This document shows positions 3,316 to 33,965 of a stretch of DNA of 39,296 nt, in pieces; the stretch's first letter is position 1; every line of letters begins with the position of its first letter. Origin of the DNA: a virus (Duplodnaviria > Heunggongvirae > Uroviricota > Caudoviricetes). The notes beneath the pieces were generated by a model. That model did no database searches. It was not told the DNA's origin and saw only the letters and a program-made list of their open reading frames with translations. Position numbers and translations under genes: made by a program. The stretch lies in the IMG/VR virus record IMGVR_UViG_2541047784_000014. The stretch is one strand, 5' to 3'.

Positions 3316-6072
3316 TTAGCTACTTTCAAGCATTGCAAGACGTGATTCTATTTTTTCGATTCTTCTACGCAAATAAGCTGACTCAAGCCATAAACACTGG
3401 TCAGTACGGATACCCCACCTATTTCCAGCCTTGCAAACCAGAGTTCGCTCTTCTGTTTCGTATTCTTCTTCCATCTCAATTTCGACGCCATCCACAACTT
3501 TAGTGATCATCCTTACCGCCATCACTGGCGCGTATTTATCATCCCATTCATCGTAACAGAGAAGGCCAAATCTGGTTCCATCAATCCCATGCGCGAGGAA
3601 AGTGTCTCTCACTTGTTGTGCTATAACACCAAAATGCCAGCGGGCACCATCTCCCTTTTCCCTGACGGCATCAAGCCAGCGAAAAGCTACAATCCTGATA
3701 TCTCCCCATGCATCCAGAATTGCATCACCTTCATAACCACGAGACATATACAAGCTGAGCTCACTTGTACTAATCGGTTCACTTTTTTCTCTACCATCTG
3801 ATGTGTTTATCGAACCGTTCGCAGAATAAACCTGTGCCCATCTAAATGATGGTGCACCAAGAGATTTGCTGTTATCAATAATTGGTGAAAAATTACCTTT
3901 AATGGCAATATTTCCAGAGTCGCCGAATATATTAATAACTGCAGAGTCATCACCATGGTTTTTTACGCTTAAGTTTCTTGATGAAATATTTATATCTTTG
4001 TTATATCCACTAACATTAATCCATCTTTTACCATCAATGTGATACCCGTAAATATTTCCGTCTGATTGTTCGTCAGGTGACTCTCTAAGAACAATAGCAT
4101 CTGCTCCAGACGACCATTGTATTTTTGTATCTGTAGGCCTCCAGTTCTTTATAATGAACGAACCATCAGTAAACTCCGTTTTTATTTGTCTATTGTCTAC
4201 AAATGCGTCTCTTGGTTTAAACTCACTTGTGTTAACGCTGCTCTGAAGATCAGAAGCAAAAAATCTAAGATTTCCTGTATAACCCTGAGTCTCGGTCTGG
4301 TTATACGCAATCATAATTCCATTTTCAAACTCAGATGATGTTATTTTAACATCACGGCAATCACCAAAAATGCAATTTCCTTTATCAAATGTTGTTTGAG
4401 CTTTGAATTTATCAAACCTTAAATTACGAACAGGGAAACCATCAACCTCTAATGCAAAGGATGCAGGAAGGCCAAAGTATTCTGATGGCTTACCTGATGT
4501 ATGATCAAGAGTAGTGGCTACTGTATTCTCAAAAACAGTCCCGCTAAAATTATTACCAATTGACGGAAACCTGATTACACTTATTGTACCTTGTATTTCA
4601 GGAGAAATACCAGATAGTGTGATGTTAGCTCCATCAAATGATGCATCTGAATACGTATATACTGATTCACTGCCAGCAATTTTAAACTGTTTAACTGAAG
4701 TTATTCTCATCGACTTTTTATGTTTAAATGTCACTGAGCTTTCAGTATTACTTACAAGATCAATCTGAGGGCTATTCCTTATCGCGATCCCTGACTGGAC
4801 ATAAACGTTATTAAAGTGCGTTTTTTCAGGATTTCCCTTCATTGAAAGGCTCCCGTCATTTTCTGTCAGTAGTAGTCCTTTTACCCTCCAATAGCCGACA
4901 ATCTGTACGTTATCAATAACTGAATCACAGCTATCGTATACATGCAACCCTATATCCCAGTCATCACCCAATGAATAAGAATCAGGGTTATTGTATCCTT
5001 CAATACCATTTTTACTTACCATTATTCTCAGGTTGCGTAACTGTGATGCCCTGTTGATACTAACAGCTACGCTCATGGCTTTTGGTGTAGCAGGAGTAAC
5101 ACCTACAGAATCTTCATTTGTAAACTCAGTGAACTTACAAGATATCCCTTCAACAATTTTAATTGGTCTTTCATTAGAGATGTTAAAAAAATATTTGTTT
5201 TTTTCTCCATCACCAGTAAATACAAGATGGGTTCCTTTACTCCAACTTTTTAATAATCTTTCAGGCGCTGGTCTATATGTATCCCAATAATCAATGCCAT
5301 CACCAATTAAAGACACTCCAGGAGGCACATCTATGTTCTTAGAAATCATCCATTTACCTGCAGGTATTCTAACGACACTTGCACCAGAATTTATCGCATT
5401 AATTAACCATTCAGACGCATCAACTTCAAAATTTAATGCAGCATATCTTTGCTCAAACGGAACAAAATCAAGAGCGTTAACGTTATCCCGCATCTTATCC
5501 TGGAACGTTCGGTATACTGCTCCAGAACCATACTGAATAAACCAACCAAAACCACCAACAACTCCGGCGATTGCAGCATCAACATAATTACGCATTGAGC
5601 GATTATTTACAGCATCCTGCTCAAGTGATGGATCTGCAAGGTTAGAAATTCTGTTTTGCTTTGCATCGTAATATTTTGCAAGCAAAGATGGTTTCATCAA
5701 TGCACGTCTGAACCACCCAAAACATTGCTGGATCAGCATCGTCAGGTAGTCAAAAGCATCTTCATGCACTTCGGGGAAAAATTTTCCCTGATTGCGAAGG
5801 TCTGTCTCCTGCACTACATCAAGCACACGATCTATCGTAATTCGCCATCCAGCAGCAAGCGGCGACGGAAGAACAACAGAACCGCCACTATAAGTGCCCG
5901 CCCCAGTTACCGTATAACCGGTATCCAGAACCAATTCTGTTACGTTCCCGTTCAGGTCAGACACCTGAACAACCAGGTCGGATTTTTTGAAAATACGGAA
6001 GGTATACGGAAATGATGTCGTAGCGCCGTTACCGGTGTATTCGTTGTGGTCAACTTCGGTTGAGACCGTCAT
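3316..6072 (-). CDS. Tailspike / tail fibre with T7 gp17-like N-terminal tail-attachment domain and C-terminal S74-type intramolecular chaperone domain
   Basis: GGAG 9 nt before the ATG; N-terminus (YTGNGATTSFPYTFRIF..DLVV) resembles the T7 tail-fibre N-terminal domain; AT-rich central receptor-binding region; C-terminus carries SDGREK and HFGVIAQQV motifs typical of auto-cleaving chaperone domains. Confidence 0.85.
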   Translation of the reverse strand: MTVSTEVDHNEYTGNGATTSFPYTFRIFKKSDLVVQVSDLNGNVTELVLDTGYTVTGAGTYSGGSVVLPSPLAAGWRITIDRVLDVVQETDLRNQGKFFPEVHEDAFDYLTMLIQQCFGWFRRALMKPSLLAKYYDAKQNRISNLADPSLEQDAVNNRSMRNYVDAAIAGVVGGFGWFIQYGSGAVYRTFQDKMRDNVNALDFVPFEQRYAALNFEVDASEWLINAINSGASVVRIPAGKWMISKNIDVPPGVSLIGDGIDYWDTYRPAPERLLKSWSKGTHLVFTGDGEKNKYFFNISNERPIKIVEGISCKFTEFTNEDSVGVTPATPKAMSVAVSINRASQLRNLRIMVSKNGIEGYNNPDSYSLGDDWDIGLHVYDSCDSVIDNVQIVGYWRVKGLLLTENDGSLSMKGNPEKTHFNNVYVQSGIAIRNSPQIDLVSNTESSVTFKHKKSMRITSVKQFKIAGSESVYTYSDASFDGANITLSGISPEIQGTISVIRFPSIGNNFSGTVFENTVATTLDHTSGKPSEYFGLPASFALEVDGFPVRNLRFDKFKAQTTFDKGNCIFGDCRDVKITSSEFENGIMIAYNQTETQGYTGNLRFFASDLQSSVNTSEFKPRDAFVDNRQIKTEFTDGSFIIKNWRPTDTKIQWSSGADAIVLRESPDEQSDGNIYGYHIDGKRWINVSGYNKDINISSRNLSVKNHGDDSAVINIFGDSGNIAIKGNFSPIIDNSKSLGAPSFRWAQVYSANGSINTSDGREKSEPISTSELSLYMSRGYEGDAILDAWGDIRIVAFRWLDAVREKGDGARWHFGVIAQQVRDTFLAHGIDGTRFGLLCYDEWDDKYAPVMAVRMITKVVDGVEIEMEEEYETEERTLVCKAGNRWGIRTDQCLWLESAYLRRRIEKIESRLAMLESS

Positions 6073-6572: not shown

Positions 6573-6664
6573 TTTACATCGCACTCCTCTTGTGCCATAG
6601 TAATCGGGCACTGGCAAAATCCAGTGCCGGGATTGGTCTCCCGGATTACTACAGAGGCACATAT

Positions 6665-6684
6665 GCCGCATAAGCGGTTTTTTT
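6665..6684 (+). terminator. Putative Rho-independent terminator
   Basis: Short hairpin CCGC-ataa-GCGG followed by seven T; preceded by a stable hairpin GGCACTGG-caaaat-CCAGTGCC (6607-6628). Confidence 0.45.
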
Positions 6685-6838
6685 ATGTGTAAAGCGCACC
6701 TATTCTATGGTGGGCTGTGTGGGGGCACCGAAAGGTGCGCCGGGTTCCTTTGTAGCCGGTAAGACCAACTCTGCACAGTTCACCACCATCTGATTGGTCT
6801 CAGCGGTGGTGATTAACCTAACTACAAAGGTGATCGCC

Positions 6839-8772: not shown

Positions 8773-8798
8773 TTAAAAACAAGGCCGCGAAAGCGGCC
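8773..8798 (-). terminator. Rho-independent terminator for the minus-strand gene 8813-9262
   Basis: Hairpin GGCCGC-gaaa-GCGGCC (8783-8798) followed on the minus strand by UUGUUUUU. Confidence 0.7.
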
Positions 8799-8799
8799 T

Positions 8800-8811
8800 G
8801 TGACATGTCAC
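8800..8811. repeat. 12-bp perfect palindrome GTGACATGTCAC (copy 1 of 3)
   Basis: Identical 12-mer also at 25802-25813 and 28066-28077, each next to a terminator-type hairpin; here it lies between the stop codon (8813-8815) and the terminator hairpin. Confidence 0.6.
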
Positions 8812-22878: not shown

Positions 22879-23171
22879 TCCTGTTCACTGGCCTCTTTGG
22901 CCATCTTCAAATACTGTTCAGGGCAATGCGCCATAACGCGCTGAAACAGTTCCAGCGCCAGATTGCGTTGCCCCTCATTAAATGCCATTGCCATAGCATC
23001 CATCGGAGAGATAGCGGAAAACACACGGCCTTTCTCCAGCACCGACCAGACAACGCGACGCCCCTGTTCACTGCTCATGACAAAGCGAATGTCATCAATT
23101 TCACGCTGTGCCATGTCACGTTGCTTACGGGCGTTTTCTTCTTTCAGTTGATCGTCTTCGTAATCTGTCAT
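22875..23171 (-). CDS. Hypothetical protein between portal and scaffold
   Basis: 98-aa ORF, start overlapping the portal stop (translational coupling). Confidence 0.55.
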   Translation of the reverse strand: MTDYEDDQLKEENARKQRDMAQREIDDIRFVMSSEQGRRVVWSVLEKGRVFSAISPMDAMAMAFNEGQRNLALELFQRVMAHCPEQYLKMAKEASEQE

Positions 23172-25068: not shown

Positions 25069-25157
25069 ATCAATGACTCCGTACGCAATTAAATTATTAC
25101 CAATTTAACCACATATGATTTATTTATCGTAGGTAGTTGACATTTAACGCACAAATT

Positions 25158-25174
25158 ATTACCTTTCAGGTAAC
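25158..25174. promoter_or_regulatory. Dyad operator-like site ATTACCTTTCAGGTAAC
   Basis: Near-identical to the 6176-6192 site; preceded by a TTGACA hexamer (25137-25142) and a shared AACCACATA element (25107-25115). Confidence 0.45.
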
Positions 25175-25494
25175 CAAAGAGTTCATTCCGGTTACTAACC
25201 TGACTGGCTTGTCGTTAAATTGAACAGGTGGAGTGAGCTTTTATTTTGAGCAGTACGGCGTATGGCACATGCGCCGATAGCGGTCTGGATACGTTTAAGG
25301 GGCACCCTCCCTTGCTCGGGCAACGAACCAGGTAGCCGGAATGTGCAAGTCGAGCGGTTTTATTCCGCGCACGGGGATTCACCATCCTGGCGATTCGGTG
25401 TGACGCCTCGGAAGAGACGAGGGTACAACGATGAGAGCATTTATGAAGCCGCGACAAAGTGTGGCGTCTTAACAGGCTAAGTGCTCTCAGCGTT

Positions 25495-25571
25495 GTGGCA
25501 TTAGCTCAGTTGGACAGAGCAACCGCCTTCTAAGCGGTTGGTCGCAGGTTCGAATCCTGCATGCCACGCCA
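25495..25571 (+). tRNA. tRNA-Arg, anticodon UCU
   Basis: Full cloverleaf: acceptor GTGGCAT/ATGCCAC, D-arm GCTC-AGTTGGACA-GAGC, anticodon stem ACCGC/GCGGT with loop CTTCTAA, T-arm GCAGG-TTCGAAT-CCTGC, discriminator G and encoded CCA; close to E. coli argU. Confidence 0.9.
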
Positions 25572-25614
25572 GAATCACGCCTAAGGACCGTGATGCCAGA
25601 AGTTCCAGGGGCTT

Positions 25615-25657
25615 GGCGGTGATGGTTTCCCTTGAAGGACTATCACCGCCCTTTTTA
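25615..25657 (+). terminator. Rho-independent terminator downstream of the tRNA
   Basis: 9-bp stem GGCGGTGAT/ATCACCGCC with a large loop, followed by CTTTTT. Confidence 0.6.
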
Positions 25658-25734
25658 CAGCAGGACGCCATTGCGATGACTTCATGCTGTAAACCCGTAC
25701 AGCCACGGAAGGCAAAACTCATTGCTTCCAGTTC

Positions 25735-25758
25735 GCCCGGTTCGCCGGGCATTTTTTT
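25735..25758 (+). terminator. Rho-independent terminator
   Basis: Hairpin GCCCGG-ttcg-CCGGGC followed by seven T. Confidence 0.75.
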
Positions 25759-25801
25759 AAGGTGTGAATCATGAAATACGAATTCGATGGATTTTGATGT
25801 C

Positions 25802-25813
25802 GTGACATGTCAC
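25802..25813. repeat. 12-bp perfect palindrome GTGACATGTCAC (copy 2 of 3)
   Basis: Identical to copies at 8800-8811 and 28066-28077; followed 4 bp later by a terminator hairpin. Confidence 0.6.
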
Positions 25814-25817
25814 AAAC

Positions 25818-25844
25818 AGCCAGCCGATGAGCTGGCTTTGTTTT
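25818..25844 (+). terminator. Rho-independent terminator
   Basis: Hairpin AGCCAGC-cgatga-GCTGGCT followed by TTTGTTTT. Confidence 0.7.
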
Positions 25845-25887
25845 ATCCTCATCAGAGGATATCAACGATATTATCCCCTCAAGCGGA

Positions 25888-27363
25888 TTAAGCATAGGGA
25901 TCGTAATCTGTGATGGCCTTGCCTTGCTGGTTCTGCTGCCCGGGAATTCGCAGACGCTTCGACACAGGGAACGCAAACGTCAGCAGTAGCGCATCGCCTT
26001 TACCAGGCGAACGCCCAAGCCGCTCCTTGATATCTTCCTTCGGTTCGATAACGATTTTACCGTCCACTCGAACTTTGTACTCTGCCGCCGACAGATCGTC
26101 CGCTGTTTCCTGGTCATCCAGCATCCCGCCCAGCCTCAGCCATGTCTTGCATGAGTTGAACATCTCCCCACGCTTGTTGAGCATCTGCTGGTCAGTAGAC
26201 GCGCCACCGAACGGAACAAGTTGCCATGTGCGCCCCCAACCGTCACCGATTGACTTCAGACCGGTACCGTAACCAAAGTCGATGAACACTGCGTCAGCCT
26301 GATACAGGTCTTCAAAGTCAGCAATACGCTTCGCCATAATCAGATCGTCGGTAGTCTTGTTGCCAGTCCACAGCACCTTACTGTGTAGCCCCTGCCGCAG
26401 GTATATCACCGCGTCATCAACGCCTGAATATGCCGGGTCAACACCGATTATCACCGGAGCATGCGCCACCTGCGCAGCGGTTACCACCCGTTTCATTGCC
26501 TCATCAGTAAGACCGGTAGGGATAAACTGCAATTCAGATGCATCAGGGAATATGCCGCGCACACGGATTTTAACGAAGTCGCTGTCTTCCCCGTAGTCAT
26601 CAACCCATTTCTGCAACTGCTGTTTGTTAGTGCCTTCCACCGTCCGGCTGTCAATCTGCGCAGTTTTCCAGCGGTGTTTATATTTGCGGAAACATTCACG
26701 GAATCGCCCGGTATTACGCGTCGGGTTTCCGAACGCCACCCAGATAATCTCAGTGTCTTCGTCCGTTAGCGCACCTTCGGCAACTTCCCACACCAGATCC
26801 GCAATGTTCGACGCTTCATCGAATACCACGATGATGCGTTTGCGCTCGTTGTGTAGTCCGGCGAATGCCTCAGTGTTGTGCTCAGACCAGGGGATTGCGT
26901 CAGCTCGCCACCGCTTGTCGTGCCCAGGATCATTGCTGTACATCGCGGTAGCGGTACAGGTAAACCAGTCTTTCGTGATAGCAAGGTTCGACCACTTGAT
27001 AATTTCCGGCCAGGTCTTCGTTCGTAGCTGGTTGTCGGTGTTGGCGGTCACCACGACCTTACAATCCTCGCAAGTGGACATGCCCCAGTTGATCAGCATT
27101 GAGATGAATGCGGATTTACCAATACCGTGACCAGAAGCGCGTGCCAGCATAAGCGGCTGATAGCGCGTCTCTGGATTCTGCAGGTGATCACGTATCTCTC
27201 GGAACGCATCAGCCTGCCACTGACGTGGGCCGGTGGCATGTGCCAGTTCAGTCCCCTCTTCCCCCCACGGGAACGCATAGAGGGCATAGCCAAGCGGATC
27301 GTGAGTGAACCCTGCAATATCCTCGATCAACTGCTCTTCAGGAGATAACGCTGTATCTGTCAC
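25888..27363 (-). CDS. Terminase large subunit
   Basis: 491 aa; Walker A-like ARASGHGIGKS in the N-terminal ATPase region; overlaps the small-subunit gene end. Confidence 0.85.
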   Translation of the reverse strand: MTDTALSPEEQLIEDIAGFTHDPLGYALYAFPWGEEGTELAHATGPRQWQADAFREIRDHLQNPETRYQPLMLARASGHGIGKSAFISMLINWGMSTCEDCKVVVTANTDNQLRTKTWPEIIKWSNLAITKDWFTCTATAMYSNDPGHDKRWRADAIPWSEHNTEAFAGLHNERKRIIVVFDEASNIADLVWEVAEGALTDEDTEIIWVAFGNPTRNTGRFRECFRKYKHRWKTAQIDSRTVEGTNKQQLQKWVDDYGEDSDFVKIRVRGIFPDASELQFIPTGLTDEAMKRVVTAAQVAHAPVIIGVDPAYSGVDDAVIYLRQGLHSKVLWTGNKTTDDLIMAKRIADFEDLYQADAVFIDFGYGTGLKSIGDGWGRTWQLVPFGGASTDQQMLNKRGEMFNSCKTWLRLGGMLDDQETADDLSAAEYKVRVDGKIVIEPKEDIKERLGRSPGKGDALLLTFAFPVSKRLRIPGQQNQQGKAITDYDPYA

Positions 27364-27956
27364 TGATTACCATCCTGACGTTCTTTGAGTCGCTTCCTGG
27401 CTGCCGCTATGCGATCAGCAATTGTCACATTCACATTAACATCCAGGCGTTCTTTGAACGCGTTGACGTCGACGTGCTTACCAATCAGTTCGAGGTTCTT
27501 CACCTTGTCAGGCCATTTAATTTTTTTGAGGATTGTCTCTATCGAATCCTCGTTCATGTTCATGATGGTCGATGACAGATCAAAGCCACTAAGCGTAGTG
27601 CGCCAGATTTTCGGCCACTCGCGGATTGGCTTAAGGCTCCCATCGTCGTTGAGGATGTCGATCACGTCCATCTGGTCGATCTCCACTAGGCGCATGAGAA
27701 CGTAATCAGCACTGACGCGCATTCGTTTGTTGCGCTCCTCCATCAACTCGGCAATCCGTTTTTGAATGCGTTCATCGCGCATCATGACACTGGCTTTAAC
27801 TGCCGCTGTATTTGGGGAGAATCCTGCGTTAATCGCTGCCTGAGTCTGGTTTTCAGGCGTTTTGATGTATGACTGGCAATAAGCCTCCTGCATTGCTGTT
27901 AGTGGCTTAAATTGCGTTGATTTGCGTTTATAGGTTTTAGGTTCAGCAGGCATCAT
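27360..27956 (-). CDS. Terminase small subunit
   Basis: Start set at the ATG pair (MMPAEPK...); helix-turn-helix-like N-terminus; the longer track ORF (to 28052) would run through a terminator hairpin and operator motifs and is rejected. Confidence 0.75.
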   Translation of the reverse strand: MMPAEPKTYKRKSTQFKPLTAMQEAYCQSYIKTPENQTQAAINAGFSPNTAAVKASVMMRDERIQKRIAELMEERNKRMRVSADYVLMRLVEIDQMDVIDILNDDGSLKPIREWPKIWRTTLSGFDLSSTIMNMNEDSIETILKKIKWPDKVKNLELIGKHVDVNAFKERLDVNVNVTIADRIAAARKRLKERQDGNQ

Positions 27957-27972
27957 AACCACCGTGGTAATA

Positions 27973-27989
27973 GTTACCGTTGTGGTAAT
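27973..27989. promoter_or_regulatory. Dyad operator-like site GTTACCGTTGTGGTAAT upstream of the terminase genes
   Basis: Same TTACC-N5-GGTAA family; 17 bp upstream of the terminase small-subunit start; flanked by GGTAATAGTTACC-type repeats (27966-27995). Confidence 0.45.
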
Positions 27990-27997
27990 AGTACCAT

Positions 27998-28025
27998 GCA
28001 AAATAAAGCCGCCATAGTTGGCGGC
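27998..28025 (-). terminator. Rho-independent terminator between the early (Nin-like) genes and the terminase genes
   Basis: Hairpin GCCGCCA-tagt-TGGCGGC (28008-28025) followed on the minus strand by UUUAUUUUG. Confidence 0.65.
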
Positions 28026-28065
28026 AGTATTCAAAACCATCAAATTCATCATGCATAATCTACTC

Positions 28066-28077
28066 GTGACATGTCAC
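28066..28077. repeat. 12-bp perfect palindrome GTGACATGTCAC (copy 3 of 3)
   Basis: Overlaps the stop codon of the 28074-28415 gene; a terminator hairpin lies about 40 bp downstream on the minus strand. Confidence 0.6.
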
Positions 28078-28415
28078 ACTATTAATTTCGTTTCATGCCA
28101 GCCTTTAGTCACCCAGCATTGTGAGTCACCATTACACGGACATGAATTAACTGGAACTCTCTCGCCGCACTTACCGCAACGTTTTCTAATGATCGATTTT
28201 ATACGCCCGCGCACGCGTGCATCATCCTGGCGGATCAGTAACGCTATATACTCACAAAATTCGTAAGGCGCACGCCCGGGGCGACGCGCAGCACAGTTAC
28301 GCTCAAGCATTTCAATTTCCTGAGCATCAAGCACAATTTCCAGCTTACGCACACCAGATGCAGCTTGTCTGGCTCTCTGAGCGGCTTTGCGCTCTGCTGC
28401 TGATTTAGCCATCAA
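28074..28415 (-). CDS. Hypothetical basic zinc-ribbon protein (Cys cluster CGKCGERVPVNSCPC); candidate late-gene regulator by position
   Basis: 113 aa, Arg/Lys-rich N-terminus and C-terminal Cys cluster; last gene before the terminator and terminase genes, i.e. the position Q occupies in lambda. Regulatory role is inference only. Confidence 0.55.
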   Translation of the reverse strand: MMAKSAAERKAAQRARQAASGVRKLEIVLDAQEIEMLERNCAARRPGRAPYEFCEYIALLIRQDDARVRGRIKSIIRKRCGKCGERVPVNSCPCNGDSQCWVTKGWHETKLIV

Positions 28416-28686
28416 TATTTACCTTTATCGCGAACACCTTTACCGGTTTATCACCGAAGTGGGGATGTGTGATTGTCTTGATTTCATATCCGTCATACTG
28501 GACGTTAATTCTGCGGCTGGAGTCGTCGCGCTTCGGATATCCCTTTGTGATAATCAGGCGGTCATACTCCCGGAACATAATTCGCTTATTCCAGTAGTCA
28601 TTACACAGGCGATACTCTTCCGTTTTCTCTCCGCGAATCATGGCATCGAAGTATTCACCTTTAACGGCAAGTTGCAGGTTAGCCAC
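28405..28686 (-). CDS. Hypothetical protein, possibly ASCH/PUA-like
   Basis: Start set at the GTG preceded by AAGGAG just after the upstream stop; motif GEKTEEYR resembles the ASCH-domain G.KT.E.R pattern (weak). Confidence 0.5.
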   Translation of the reverse strand: MANLQLAVKGEYFDAMIRGEKTEEYRLCNDYWNKRIMFREYDRLIITKGYPKRDDSSRRINVQYDGYEIKTITHPHFGDKPVKVFAIKVNIDG

Positions 28687-29038
28687 GGTTAACTCCTTGC
28701 TGTGTGGCGTCGAGTAATAAATCCCACAACCGCTGAGAGCAATTTCCGCATGTACAGCGTTGACCCACAACGTTTATCGCGTTGCTGATTTCCGGCGTTA
28801 CCTGTTTAGGAACCATAACCCAACCATCCGGAGTTACCGGAGAGTTGCCATCCAGCGCGTTCAACTTGTAAGCCTGGCTTACAGGTTCTGCACTATCAGC
28901 TTCGCGCCGCTTCTGTAGCTCTGCTGCCATCGCTCTCACGACTTCAACTGGTGCCCTTGCAGCAAACTCTATGTTGGTGATCAGCTCATTAAGATATTGC
29001 TCGCTGGGATACTGTTTCTTATTGGTAATAGTGGTCAT
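28679..29038 (-). CDS. Hypothetical early protein
   Basis: 119-aa ORF in an operon-like array with tight junctions; no family recognised. Confidence 0.55.
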   Translation of the reverse strand: MTTITNKKQYPSEQYLNELITNIEFAARAPVEVVRAMAAELQKRREADSAEPVSQAYKLNALDGNSPVTPDGWVMVPKQVTPEISNAINVVGQRCTCGNCSQRLWDLLLDATQQGVNRG

Positions 29039-29041
29039 GTG

Positions 29042-29329
29042 TTAGTCCTCATCCACTTCAACGCCATCTTTCAGCGTGATGCCGTGCCAATCATCAGCCC
29101 AACTGGTTAGCCCTGGCGCATCAATGCTAGGCATATAGACGCTTGCAGTGTGGTAGCCCTTATCGTTATCAATGCTGGCAACGTGCTCGCCGTTGTATGC
29201 GCTCAGCGTGTCCAGGACGCTATAAAACTTTCCTCCGGCTGCCCTGAAATCCTTTACAGCCTTCACAAGGCGATTCCACGCTTTTTCCTGTTCTGGCGTC
29301 AGGTCGATTAATTCCTGCAAAGTTGCCAT
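29042..29329 (-). CDS. Hypothetical early protein
   Basis: Start set at the ATG (MATLQELIDL...) with AGGAGAG upstream, immediately after the upstream stop; the longer track ORF overlaps the upstream gene. Confidence 0.5.
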   Translation of the reverse strand: MATLQELIDLTPEQEKAWNRLVKAVKDFRAAGGKFYSVLDTLSAYNGEHVASIDNDKGYHTASVYMPSIDAPGLTSWADDWHGITLKDGVEVDED

Positions 29330-30545: not shown

Positions 30546-30890
30546 TCAGAACTCTTCGATGTTCCAGCCACCACCTGCTTTCTTTGGTTTAACCGTTACC
30601 CCGATGATTCGGAACGGATACTGATCTGCGGCGACTTTGGTTTTCACCCTGGCGTCGTCGGTCCAGAAACCTTTCACTTCGTGCAGTTCCATCTCGCCGG
30701 TGGCGAGCATCACAGCAAAATCTGGCGTATAGAACGTGTTGTCAGCTAACCGCAGCTTGATACCCTCAAATCGATACCAGACGATTTCTCCTGCACGTTT
30801 ACGCAACTCAAGGTGCTGGCAATACGCAGATTCTGTTTTGTTCATCTGGCCTGTTTTGAGTCGACCAAGAGCCTGTATCTGTTTTCTCAT
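30546..30890 (-). CDS. DUF1064-like phage protein (putative nuclease/resolvase fold)
   Basis: 114 aa; family assignment from remembered sequence pattern; the start codon abuts an operator-like site (30893-30909). Confidence 0.6.
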   Translation of the reverse strand: MRKQIQALGRLKTGQMNKTESAYCQHLELRKRAGEIVWYRFEGIKLRLADNTFYTPDFAVMLATGEMELHEVKGFWTDDARVKTKVAADQYPFRIIGVTVKPKKAGGGWNIEEF

Positions 30891-30892
30891 AA

Positions 30893-30909
30893 TTTACCCC
30901 TGAGGTAAT
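30893..30909. promoter_or_regulatory. Dyad operator-like site TTTACCCCTGAGGTAAT
   Basis: Same motif family; immediately upstream of the DUF1064 start codon; followed by AACCACATA (30914-30922). Confidence 0.45.
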
Positions 30910-30954
30910 TAAAAACCACATAAGACACGAAATCAATAGAGTTTAGAATACTTT

Positions 30955-30971
30955 GTTACCCAGAAGGTAAC
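30955..30971. promoter_or_regulatory. Dyad operator-like site GTTACCCAGAAGGTAAC
   Basis: Perfect 6-bp arms; second site of the module between the P-like gene and the DUF1064 gene. Confidence 0.45.
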
Positions 30972-31007
30972 TATCAAGGCGTAAAAAAATGCGCTATCGC
31001 GCTGGTA

Positions 31008-31808
31008 TTACTTGATAAATCCTGCCGCCTTTCCCCGCCTGTATTCCTCCATCAGCCACTGTGCCGGTGTTATTCCCCCCAATGTGGCGGCGTTAGGCAT
31101 ACACCCGAAACTTCGCCCTGGTGGATGGTAAACGTCTCTCCCTGTGTCCGGAGGCGTACTCATGGGTTCTGGCTTTGCCTGTATGCTGATCACCGGATCG
31201 GGTATCTGCTGTCCGGAAGCTACCTTTTTCGCCCAATCATCGAGCAGCCTGCGCGCGTGTTTCTCAACCTCAATCTCGCTAAGCTGGCGCTGATACATTG
31301 CACGGCGGGTATCACATACGACCCAGTACATAACCGGATGTCGCCACGGGAATCTTTCGGGACCACCAGGATATAAACTTTTTTCCTTGCTGTACCGGTG
31401 AAACTCCGCCATCACATCGTCAATGGTGACGCCAAGAACCATCTTGCTGTCTTTACACCACTTGATGAATTGCCCTGGCGACGGCCAGAACGGAGATTCA
31501 CTGGCGCGGGCGTGGCGCATACCAGCAGAAACCTGTTCACGGGTTCGGATCCCCCCTTCGGCAAACGCAGCAATCCACTGCTGTTTTGCAGCAACTTCCT
31601 GCTCTGGAGTCTTCAGGTTGGTTACTACTGCCGCCGGAAACAGTTGTTTCAGCTGTTTGAAAAGGGCATCAACAAGCCTCTCTGCTGACATGTTCACCAC
31701 ATTGTCATTGTTGACGTACTGATGCTCATAACCTGACATGCGAGAAAGGGCTTCTCCGTCACGGTTTTGTATCGCGGTAAAAACGTTGTTCACAAGAAAT
31801 CCTCCCAC
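31008..31808 (-). CDS. Replication protein P-like (helicase loader)
   Basis: Central segment GMRHARASESPFWPSPGQFIKWCK parallels lambda P (GMRVARRQNRPFLPSPGQFVAWCR); directly downstream of the O-like gene. Confidence 0.8.
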   Translation of the reverse strand: MGGFLVNNVFTAIQNRDGEALSRMSGYEHQYVNNDNVVNMSAERLVDALFKQLKQLFPAAVVTNLKTPEQEVAAKQQWIAAFAEGGIRTREQVSAGMRHARASESPFWPSPGQFIKWCKDSKMVLGVTIDDVMAEFHRYSKEKSLYPGGPERFPWRHPVMYWVVCDTRRAMYQRQLSEIEVEKHARRLLDDWAKKVASGQQIPDPVISIQAKPEPMSTPPDTGRDVYHPPGRSFGCMPNAATLGGITPAQWLMEEYRRGKAAGFIK

Positions 31809-32629
31809 GCTTCAGGGCTGTTCCAGTGCGGAACGTTGTTATCAGGTAATGTTGATTGCTTCTGTCTGCTAATCTGCAGCCGCCTTGCCAGCTTCTGCTC
31901 CCACTGTGCCTGATGGTATGCCTTACCCTCAGCCATCCAGTAAATTCTGAACTCTGCAAGCTCCTGTGCCGTTGGCAGACTGTCCAGGTAGATCCCCTGC
32001 AATGAGCTTTTCCGAAGAAAGTCATCTGATGGCTGCCATTGTTCATGCATGACAAATTTGCCTAATTGCCCTGGCCCACCAGGAGGAACAAAGTTATTCA
32101 TCACGGCGTTGTTTGCGCCGGGGTCATGAGGCACAGAATCCCCGCTTTTTGTCCTGCTCTCCCTCTCTTGGTTAAATGACTGGTTATATGACTGGTTCTG
32201 GATCCCGTTTTTGGGATCATTCAACATCCCGTTTTTGGGATCATTCAACATCCCGTTTTTGGGATCATTCAACATCCCGTTTTTGGGTATATTCCCGTTT
32301 TCGGTAACATTACCGTTTTCGGGTTCATTACCCCCTTCCCGGTTGCCTTTAATGTTCCCGTTTTTGGTTATATTAAGAGAGAAAACCCGCACTCTTTTCG
32401 TCGCACCCTTTCTCTCTCCGGTATCTGAAATAAGCCCCATTTTCATGAGCGATATAAGCCCGGCCTGCACGGTTTTTTTATTCAGGCAAGTGTCTTTAAC
32501 GAGGCGTTCTATGCTGGGGTAGCAGAGGTTATATTCATCGGCTCTGTCAGCCATCGAGAGCAGTATGAGCTTTAATGACGAGCTACCTGGATCTGTCTCC
32601 CAGGCCCAATCTGTTGCATGTCTGCTCAT
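31790..32629 (-). CDS. Replication initiator O-like protein with embedded origin iterons
   Basis: N-terminal DNA-binding-like domain; central PKNGMLND x3 repeats encoded by three perfect 24-bp tandem iterons; gene order O-P as in lambdoid phages. Confidence 0.75.
   Translation of the reverse strand: MSRHATDWAWETDPGSSSLKLILLSMADRADEYNLCYPSIERLVKDTCLNKKTVQAGLISLMKMGLISDTGERKGATKRVRVFSLNITKNGNIKGNREGGNEPENGNVTENGNIPKNGMLNDPKNGMLNDPKNGMLNDPKNGIQNQSYNQSFNQERESRTKSGDSVPHDPGANNAVMNNFVPPGGPGQLGKFVMHEQWQPSDDFLRKSSLQGIYLDSLPTAQELAEFRIYWMAEGKAYHQAQWEQKLARRLQISRQKQSTLPDNNVPHWNSPEAWEDFL
32202..32273. repeat. Origin-like iterons: three perfect 24-bp tandem repeats ATCCCGTTTTTGGGATCATTCAAC
   Basis: Each unit contains the dyad ATCCC-N6-GGGAT; degenerate copies of CCCGTTTT(T)GG continue to about 32370; located inside the O-like gene as in lambda ori. 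Confidence 0.75.
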
Positions 32630-32924: not shown

Positions 32925-32941
32925 ATTACCTTTGAGGTACG
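32925..32941. promoter_or_regulatory. Dyad operator-like site ATTACCTTTGAGGTACG (imperfect right arm)
   Basis: Same motif family; just downstream of the tR1-like terminator. Confidence 0.4.
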
Positions 32942-33380: not shown

Positions 33381-33965
33381 ATGAAAAGTATCCAGGACGT
33401 CCGCAGGCAAAATCTCAACGACTTGATCGACCGTGAATTCAATGGTGTTCAGACGCGGATGGCAGAAAAACTTGGAACTCAGGCAAATCTGGTAAACCGC
33501 TGGGCTCTTGGCAAGAAGGTTATCGGCGACCAGGTTGCGCGAAAAATTGAAGCTGCCGCCAATAAACCCCGTAACTGGCTTGATATCGATCGCTCGCTTT
33601 CTCAGGAAGGTTTTCAGCCTGTCGGCCCAAGCGACATTGGTCAGCTGGCGGCTCACAACCTGGAACGCTGGATGAGCGAAAGCCGCGACCTTTCAACGCA
33701 GGGAAAACTTCACCGCGCATCCGGCGTCGCCCAGGTGACAATCAGTCGCCTGTTAAACAATGAGGTCAGCGTTTCCATTTCCACCCTGGAGAATGTTGCA
33801 TCCGCATTCGGGCGTCACGGATATGAACTACTGATTCACCCGCACGACCCTGCGACTATCAACTATGACCGCTCGCGCTACGCATTGTTACCCGAAACCG
33901 AGAAAGCAAAGATCGAAAGTTACATTGAATTTGTCATCAACCAGAACGAAAAAAGCAAACAATAA
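33381..33965 (+). CDS. Repressor-like protein with two predicted HTH regions and no recognisable S24 peptidase domain
   Basis: HTH-like segments near residues 25-45 and 115-135; no Ala-Gly/Ser-Lys autocleavage signature seen by eye; cI-like position; followed by a strong terminator. Confidence 0.7.
   Translation: MKSIQDVRRQNLNDLIDREFNGVQTRMAEKLGTQANLVNRWALGKKVIGDQVARKIEAAANKPRNWLDIDRSLSQEGFQPVGPSDIGQLAAHNLERWMSESRDLSTQGKLHRASGVAQVTISRLLNNEVSVSISTLENVASAFGRHGYELLIHPHDPATINYDRSRYALLPETEKAKIESYIEFVINQNEKSKQ

Follow-up and report, generated by a model that had tools for sequence, protein, structure and literature searches.

The DNA considered here (IMG/VR record IMGVR_UViG_2541047784_000014; hereafter the window, meaning the whole stretch of 39,296 nt that was analysed) is the 39.3-kb complete or near-complete genome of an epsilon15/phiV10-like phage (Uetakevirus). 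The subject of this study is the junction at which the early-right operon gives way to the terminase genes, with the gene for a 112-amino-acid (aa) basic protein, the palindrome at the end of that gene, and the terminator and operators that follow. The region 27300-29100 is a 94-99% match to E. coli O157 typing phages 9 and 10, PAS61, phiV10, and TL-2011b; epsilon15, SPN1S, and Tyrion are more distant matches. The minus strand carries all genes near the junction, and in Uetake-like phages the early-right operon finishes with the 112-aa protein gene, located just before terS. An earlier note on this DNA had likened the arrangement to the Q, pR', qut, and tR' elements of lambda. The features it described were all found, on the minus strand and where it had placed them, including the terminase genes that follow the junction; however, it had omitted a second operator, a candidate extended -10 element, and two further copies of the palindrome (25802 and 8800), and the palindrome is not specific to the junction. 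The features are:

28074-28412, minus strand: gene for the 112-aa basic protein, of the epsilon15 gp49 / phiV10 p55 / N15 gp46 family (phrog_536)
28066-28077, no strand assigned: palindrome copy A, GTGACATGTCAC, which contains the stop codon TGA (28076-28074)
27998-28025, minus strand: intrinsic terminator tA, stem GCCGCCAACTATGGCGGC then TTTATTTTGC, closing the early-right operon
27988-27996, minus strand: candidate extended -10 element TGGTACTAT (TGnTAnnAT), right after the T-tract and overlapping O1 by two bases
27973-27989, no strand assigned: probable repressor operator O1, ATTACCACAACGGTAAC, one mismatch from ATTACC-N5-GGTAAT; the dyad of the earlier note
27955-27971, no strand assigned: probable repressor operator O2, ATTACCACGGTGGTTAT, 18 bp from O1, with the direct repeat GTGGTAATAGT at 18-bp spacing
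27360-27956, minus strand: terS, terminase small subunit, short start (Pfam Terminase_2, E=1e-29; phrog_51)
25888-27363, minus strand: terL, terminase large subunit (phrog_2, phrog_5902)
25818-25847, plus strand: terminator tB, AGCCAGCCGATGAGCTGGCT then TTGTTTTATC, canonical on this strand, in the direction of a tRNA/moron unit
25802-25813, no strand assigned: palindrome copy B, just past the terL stop codon and 4 nt from the tB hairpin
8800-8811, no strand assigned: palindrome copy C, where the virion structural operon ends, one base past a stop codon and abutting tC
8775-8799, minus strand: terminator tC, AGGCCGCTTTCGCGGCC then TTGTTTTT, closing the late structural operon

The palindrome GTGACATGTCAC was found exactly three times in the window (shuffled sequences predict 0.001 occurrences) and is the only 12-nt palindrome that is repeated there. 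It is perfect, and the stop codon of the 112-aa protein gene lies within copy A, as had been reported. Every copy is located beside an intrinsic terminator, copy A being 40 nt upstream of tA. The T-tract of tB points away from terL, and the late strand has a weak T-run only; both the phiV10 and the epsilon15 records list tC as a terminator. In epsilon15 and Tyrion the palindrome is likewise present in three exact copies at syntenic positions beside terminators. Equivalents of copy B were identified in phiV10 (2262), epsilon15 (2142), and Tyrion (2702), and equivalents of copy C in phiV10 (19493), epsilon15 (19517), Tyrion (20377), and the Klebsiella phage BUCT711 (18526), in which the first and third positions are kept. 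One phiV10 copy is split across the record ends and has one mismatch. Copies A and B are kept in most of 80 close relatives. A one-mismatch palindrome, GTGCCATGTCAC, was also detected at 23108-23119, in coding sequence near the portal/gp5 boundary; it is syntenic in phiV10 (5306-5317) and many close relatives, and could be a weak fourth site or chance.

The same pairing of gene and site was detected in N15-like, P2-like, and lambdoid prophages, where GTGAC-N2-GTCAC overlaps or adjoins the gene's stop codon. The genes for N15 gp46, phiKO2 gp45, epsilon15 gp49, and phiV10 p55 share a GTGAC-N2-GTCAC site overlapping the stop codon; the N15 gp46 gene ends in GCG TGA CTGGTCAC, yielding GTGACTGGTCAC. 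In N15-type loci the site overlaps the stop codon in all 49 cases, with invariant half-sites and TG, GG, CA, or CC at the centre. In Yersinia P2-type phages the gene, which follows gene A in P2-like phages, ends in GTGACGCGTCAC in nearly all intact loci, and the GTGAC-N2-GTCAC site overlaps the stop codon in most of the 51 loci. Among 66 species-representative Enterobacterales prophage loci, only about 16 of them Uetake-like, 24 have a site that overlaps the stop codon, and about 17 others have one no more than 30 nt away. In the non-Uetake prophages the gene is followed by ninB or by an HNH endonuclease, integrase, or methyltransferase gene. The C-terminal residues vary between lineages (V, L, A), and coding constraint therefore does not explain the site. 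In 1.46 Mb of loci the N2 spacing gave 102 matches; other spacings from N0 to N8 gave 0-5, and reversed arms 0-2. The flanks extend the consensus to YGTGACATGTCACR. A terminator-like hairpin is found within 60 nt of 34 of the 102 sites (9.4% of random positions; a three- to fourfold enrichment), and 25 of these 34 sites are upstream of the hairpin. N15 (AF064539) contains three copies of GTGACTGGTCAC, at 28550, 33237, and 39269; besides the gp46 copy, one is between genes 33 and 32 and one is inside repA, the position of the latter being conserved across phage-plasmids of the N15 type that are 76-100% identical.

This pattern would be the signature of a dimeric DNA-binding protein that travels together with its own site, and we consider it likely that the 112-aa protein binds the palindrome. 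Judging from these sequence comparisons, the upstream zinc protein is very probably a sequence-specific DNA binder tied to the palindrome.

Several relatives carry an insertion after the gp49-family gene and palindrome, consisting of a LexA-box-like dyad (CTGT-N8-ACAG), a promoter, and a small gene. It was observed in BUCT711 (locus L091, about 380-430), in loci L194, L195, and L206, and in a Yersinia phage (L005, about 4400-4440), and is probably an SOS-controlled antirepressor or moron.

The open reading frame (ORF) of the 112-aa protein (28074-28415) begins with TTG, and the likely start is the ATG at 28412. The product has a pI of 9.7, with 23 lysine and arginine residues versus 13 aspartate and glutamate, and cysteines at positions 40, 53, 79, 82, 91, 93, and 99. 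The description of the last early gene product as a basic protein with a Cys cluster is therefore confirmed, and it is of the Cys4 zinc-binding type. In an alignment of distant homologues R8, R13, R43, Y50, and E54 are kept, together with C79, C82, C91, and C99, which are invariant. An AlphaFold2 model (pLDDT 87.6) consists of a basic helix (5-19), an extended segment (20-29), helices 30-42 and 52-74, a Cys knuckle, and a last helix. The order strand-helix-helix, typical of the ribbon-helix-helix (RHH) fold, is present, and the protein models as an RHH domain plus a Cys4 zinc knuckle, with the basic helix at the N-terminus. N15 gp46, phiKO2 gp45, epsilon15 gp49, and phiV10 p55 are true homologues (32-97% identity) and share this two-domain architecture; a similarity of gp49 to N15 gp46 is mentioned in the epsilon15 record itself. 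In the literature searched there was no experimental characterisation of these four proteins.

Sequence databases gave little on the function of the protein. No Pfam match was detected for the protein at E<=0.1, nor for 72 family members; Pfam, NCBIfam, and PADLOC scans returned nothing usable, and a single-sequence search of the PDB returned nothing. The NCBIfam scan included a sub-threshold match to the LexA-regulated protein YbfE (E=0.04, 14 bits versus a cut-off of 62), and a few homologues have precomputed PF10723 matches. In a profile search of the PDB the zinc region showed weak likeness to the zinc ribbons of ribosomal proteins L40e and L32 (E>=0.03). The family is called 'transcriptional regulator' in PHROGs (phrog_536) by annotation only. 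It is small: clustering at 50% identity leaves 229 groups, and most of the 150 best among them are full-length matches of about 105-135 aa.

The closest structural matches belong to the RHH repressors (Arc, Mnt, CopG, MetJ, the toxin-antitoxin antitoxins TacA and ParD, AmrZ, TraM/TraY), with which the protein shares the strand-helix-helix core. Their targets are also short palindromes, and a length of 12-14 bp suits one dimer. Unlike these repressors, the 112-aa protein has the additional N-terminal helix and C-terminal knuckle, its palindromes are located at operon ends and at the 3' end of the gene encoding it, not at promoters, and it has no match to the curated RHH models of Pfam. Small Cys4 zinc proteins are also known in P2 (Ogr) and P4 (Delta), where they control late transcription. 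The Yersinia P2-like phages lack an annotated Ogr gene, and their early operon ends with the gp49-family gene. However, the 112-aa protein has no match to Ogr_Delta in Pfam. Elements of the Ogr type, TGT-N12-ACA at about -55 of late promoters, were not seen, and GTGAC-N2-GTCAC was the sole motif detected; the P2-like Yersinia phage does not have it at the four late promoters, its one exact copy being at the gene's own stop codon.

Downstream of the palindrome, the minus-strand terminator described previously is borne out as a strong one that separates the last early-right gene from terS. Its stem at 28025-28008 has seven pairs, six of them G-C, and the T-tract extends as far as 27998. A rho-independent terminator is annotated at this position in the GenBank records of epsilon15 and phiV10, and tA is kept in 11 relatives with variants of stem and loop. 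An Rfam scan of the junction identified no RNA family. In one Uetake-like lineage (loci L192 and L218) both palindrome and terminator are missing, and the gene stop is followed directly by operators and terS.

Eleven Uetake-like phages and prophages from several genera were aligned across the junction. Three blocks are conserved: the palindrome, the terminator, and the stretch from the T-tract to the ATG, with the extended -10, O1, O2, and the Shine-Dalgarno (SD) sequence. Conservation is lost between palindrome and terminator, where at least two lengths occur, 23 and 40 nt, and the distance ranges among relatives from 23 to 40 nt or more. Within the candidate extended -10 the TG and TA..AT bases are invariant in all 11 junctions, positions 3-4 of the hexamer being free (TGnTA(C/G/T)(T/G)AT); the predicted start of the terS transcript is at about 27981. 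The element is rather likely to be a functional promoter. The short terS start agrees with the annotations of epsilon15, Tyrion, and TL-2011b. In the phiV10 RefSeq record (NC_007804) the terS coding sequence (41-715) begins about 80 nt upstream of that start, and the long reading frame runs across the terminator and operators; this is probably a mis-annotation. Further downstream in Uetake-like loci a terL of 76-94% identity was found.

O2 spans the terS SD sequence GGTGG (27963-27959) and the ATG (27956-27954). Allowing up to two mismatches, the motif ATTACC-N5-GGTAAT has 13 matches in the window versus 0.97 expected from shuffles. Matches at 32925, 33310, 34022, and 34084 flank the repressor gene (33381-33965) in the immunity region; others precede the DUF1064 unit (30955, 30893), the head unit (25158), and the tailspike unit (6176), and in the antirepressor region (6556, 7597). 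The epsilon15 record lists seven 'protein_bind: repressor' sites with the same consensus, one of them (12-27) just upstream of terS. O1 and O2 are probably prophage-repressor operators matching these annotated sites. The operator dyad claimed previously is thus present, but its assignment to a Q/qut switch is not upheld, the site matching an annotated repressor type spread genome-wide. A second junction of the same design was observed at 30888-30990 on the minus strand, with a weak hairpin followed by a T-run and operators at 30955-30971 and 30893-30909, the latter stopping 2 nt before the ATG of a DUF1064 / Holliday-junction-resolvase-like gene.

Based on these data, we propose a stop-and-restart junction under the prophage repressor, combined with a protein-palindrome pair at the ends of transcription units; as a whole, this explanation seems to us slightly better than an even bet. 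Terminator tA would simply end the early-right operon, and terS-terL probably has its own repressor-controlled promoter. Transcription would restart just downstream, at TGGTACTAT, with the tandem operators bracketing the predicted start: O1 would overlap the -10 and the start, and O2 would cover the terS ribosome-binding site and start codon. The prophage repressor may thereby shut the terminase operon directly, and the restart would occur on its own once the repressor is gone. The succession of terminator, operator, operator, and ATG would be a recurrent layout, found again upstream of the DUF1064 gene. The palindrome YGTGAC-N2-GTCACR would be the protein's own site, with one copy fused to the end of the protein's gene and the others at tB and tC. 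Bound there as a dimer, the protein might reinforce or modulate termination and insulation at the ends of transcription units, for instance as a roadblock; for this role our confidence is tentative, and the role may well be another.

Several observations weigh against this explanation. The promoter has no recognisable -35, and a consensus sigma-70 scanner, which requires one, reported no promoter. The identity of the operators derives from GenBank annotation and enrichment, and binding, promoter, and transcript ends have all been read from sequence. At the gene's own 3' end, a terminator was found in 13 of 39 loci with the palindrome versus 3 of 23 without (p=0.13, not significant), and the association with terminators could reflect mere position at gene and operon ends. 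In N15 the copy inside repA and another located directly before the ribosome-binding site of the next gene are unfit for a purely terminator-associated role, and the repA copy hints at a role beyond transcription-unit ends. No site was detected in the partial 7-8 kb loci around the Vibrio K233 and Aeromonas homologues.

Resemblance to a host system raises another explanation. The E. coli protein MatP, which contains an RHH domain, binds the 13-bp matS site GTGACRNYGTCAC (PMC6907758; PMC3603311), and true matS sites have been reported to be absent from prophages (PMC3603311). MatP/matS and the phage pair share the half-sites GTGAC...GTCAC, the use of few dispersed sites, and a similar range (Enterobacterales, Vibrio). 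The 112-aa protein may be a MatP-like organiser of phage DNA with no part in transcription, one that bridges or marks the three sites for replication, segregation, condensation, or packaging, in which case gene-end positions would merely avoid coding sequence. The three dispersed copies per genome in Uetake-like and N15-like elements are consistent with such a function, as is the conserved copy within the N15 replication gene. A protein numbered gp46, a possible homologue of N15 gp46, has been detected in lysogens of a telomere phage (PMC12042878). However, the spacer of matS is 3 bp, one base pair longer than that of the phage site, which keeps strictly to 12 bp. A search of the window for the 13-bp form, allowing one mismatch, gave no match, and the 1.46 Mb of loci contain it once, in agreement with the reported avoidance of matS in prophages (PMC3603311). 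Where the 112-aa protein has its zinc knuckle, MatP has a four-helix bundle and coiled coil, neither of which is in the model. Comparison with MatP by hhalign was negative (probability 0.1%), and nothing resembling a MatP-type relative was seen among the best 150 of the 229 clusters. In addition, epsilon15-like phages integrate, and a partition function is therefore not needed. We regard the organiser function as unlikely, and the resemblance to matS as a lead, not a finding. A broader possibility is that the RHH-Cys4 family acts at matS-like 12-bp sites near the ends of transcription units, its own gene's 3' end among them, and alters the behaviour of RNA polymerase at the adjoining terminator; it would be a DNA-site-directed, promoter-independent termination or antitermination factor that sets the early-late boundary in epsilon15-like phages, perhaps sharing ancestry with MatP/matS; this seems distinctly improbable at present.

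The comparison with lambda Q made by the earlier note implies that the protein would bind the palindrome, engage passing RNA polymerase, and allow readthrough of tA into terS, late expression being delayed until the last early product accumulates. Like Q, the 112-aa protein is encoded by the last early-right gene directly before the late genes, has zinc-type cysteines, probably binds a DNA site, and is followed closely by a strong terminator. The palindrome is 23-40 nt upstream of this terminator in the direction of transcription, and the wider set has the same orientation (25 of the 34 terminator-proximal sites). A zinc ribbon is also present in Q of lambda, whose action begins with binding to a DNA site (PMC9388147), and the promoter scan gave terS no strong consensus sigma-70 promoter. 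On the other hand, the protein has no sequence or fold relation to Q. No match to the Q families (Pfam Phage_antitermQ / Phage_Q type) was found for the protein at E<=0.1, nor for the 72 family members, there is no Ogr/Delta or Mor/C signature, and the protein models as RHH. The 11 junctions contain no conserved promoter upstream of the terminator that could act as pR', and no sigma-70 promoter is detectable or conserved at the three palindromes of the window. A Q-binding element in a late promoter with a sigma-dependent pause was not found, and no promoter, pause, or short terminated transcript unit was seen upstream of tA. The likeness to the lambda module, and with it the need for antitermination or activation by the upstream protein, is thus not supported: unlike lambda, the late operon appears to have an operator-controlled start downstream of the terminator, with the conserved extended -10 and the operators in place, so that readthrough is probably not needed, and the site is repeated three times. 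At copy B, antitermination before tB would send polymerase antisense into terL, and copy C stands before tC, where the late operon closes. Antitermination at tA is possible, but none of the observations favours it specifically, and it fits copies B and C poorly. Relatives with neither palindrome nor terminator at the junction also speak against it. The family coexists in N15 with that phage's own Q-type activator, gp40, and occurs elsewhere at non-late positions, before ninB (in lambdoid prophages), integrase, or methyltransferase genes; the 'Q position' is therefore not general. Of the earlier reading, the strong terminator and the Cys4 protein are supported; a Q-like switch is, in our judgment, quite improbable.

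Still less probable is recognition of the palindrome by another factor, from the host or the phage, or its action as a small RNA hairpin at the 3' end, with the link to the gene a case of hitch-hiking. Binding of the palindrome by the 112-aa protein is itself drawn from sequence comparison, an RNA fold predicts a 5-bp GUGAC/GUCAC hairpin, and the outer arms GTGA...TCAC resemble several host operators. However, gene and site are coupled in four phage architectures that are unrelated and have little else in common. Strict spacing and invariant half-sites around a variable centre (AT, TG, GG, GC, GT) are a pattern of a dimeric DNA-binding protein and not of a hairpin. The RNA would form a very short stem-loop at most, and no Rfam family was found at the junction. 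The CRP, LexA, SlmA, and LacI-type host sites do not appear to fit the palindrome in spacing or inner bases.

Two further candidate functions of the palindrome were rejected. A promoter could be drawn with GTGACA as the -35 and CATGAT or TAAATT as the -10 (28077-28048, 9/12 matches), but neither the -10 candidates nor the spacing are conserved in relatives, and the epsilon15-type spacers would start the transcript at the terminator stem itself. A pac or cos site or genome end was considered because the phiV10 record begins inside the palindrome; it was rejected on account of the three copies in each genome and of the different starting points of the epsilon15 and Tyrion records.

Other elements were noted in the window. 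Between terL and the head genes, a tRNA-Arg(TCT) gene (25495-25571) is located on the plus strand, opposite the late genes. It belongs to an apparently separate plus-strand unit (25130-25850) with a TTGACA promoter-like element by the operator at 25158-25174; the unit ends at several plus-strand terminators, the final one being tB, the partner of palindrome B. Rfam identified the Hfq-binding RNA isrK at 6608-6684 (plus strand, 74.7 bits), followed by a C4 antisense RNA at 6703-6790 (78.6 bits). The pair is an antisense immunity module of the P1/P7/N15 type, near the operator-like sites 6556 and 7597 and the antirepressor region. Perfect 24-bp tandem repeats of ATCCCGTTTTTGGGATCATTCAAC (3.6 copies, 32202-32287) are followed by 18-bp repeats (32277-32332). 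The repeat region (32169-32332) lies within a 279-aa ORF (31790-32629, minus strand), and the repeats look like origin iterons within a replication gene.

Epsilon15-like phages are present in about 11% of complete E. coli genomes (612/5426). The few searchable papers on them do not address the timing of late genes, and the protein-site pair appears undescribed in the literature searched, where queries with the exact palindromes, N15 gp46, and RHH or zinc-ribbon phage regulators gave nothing relevant. Our analysis suggests that in these phages the prophage repressor directly controls every transcription unit, including the terminase operon, a logic simpler than the lambda cascade. A family known as 'hypothetical' or 'transcriptional regulator' is now paired, on the strength of sequence, with a precise candidate site, YGTGAC-N2-GTCACR. 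The gene and site move together through podovirus, siphovirus, and myovirus backgrounds, including the N15 phage-plasmids. The pair provides a testable binding hypothesis and a handle on transcription-unit boundaries, and its site stands in a one-base-pair relation to host matS.

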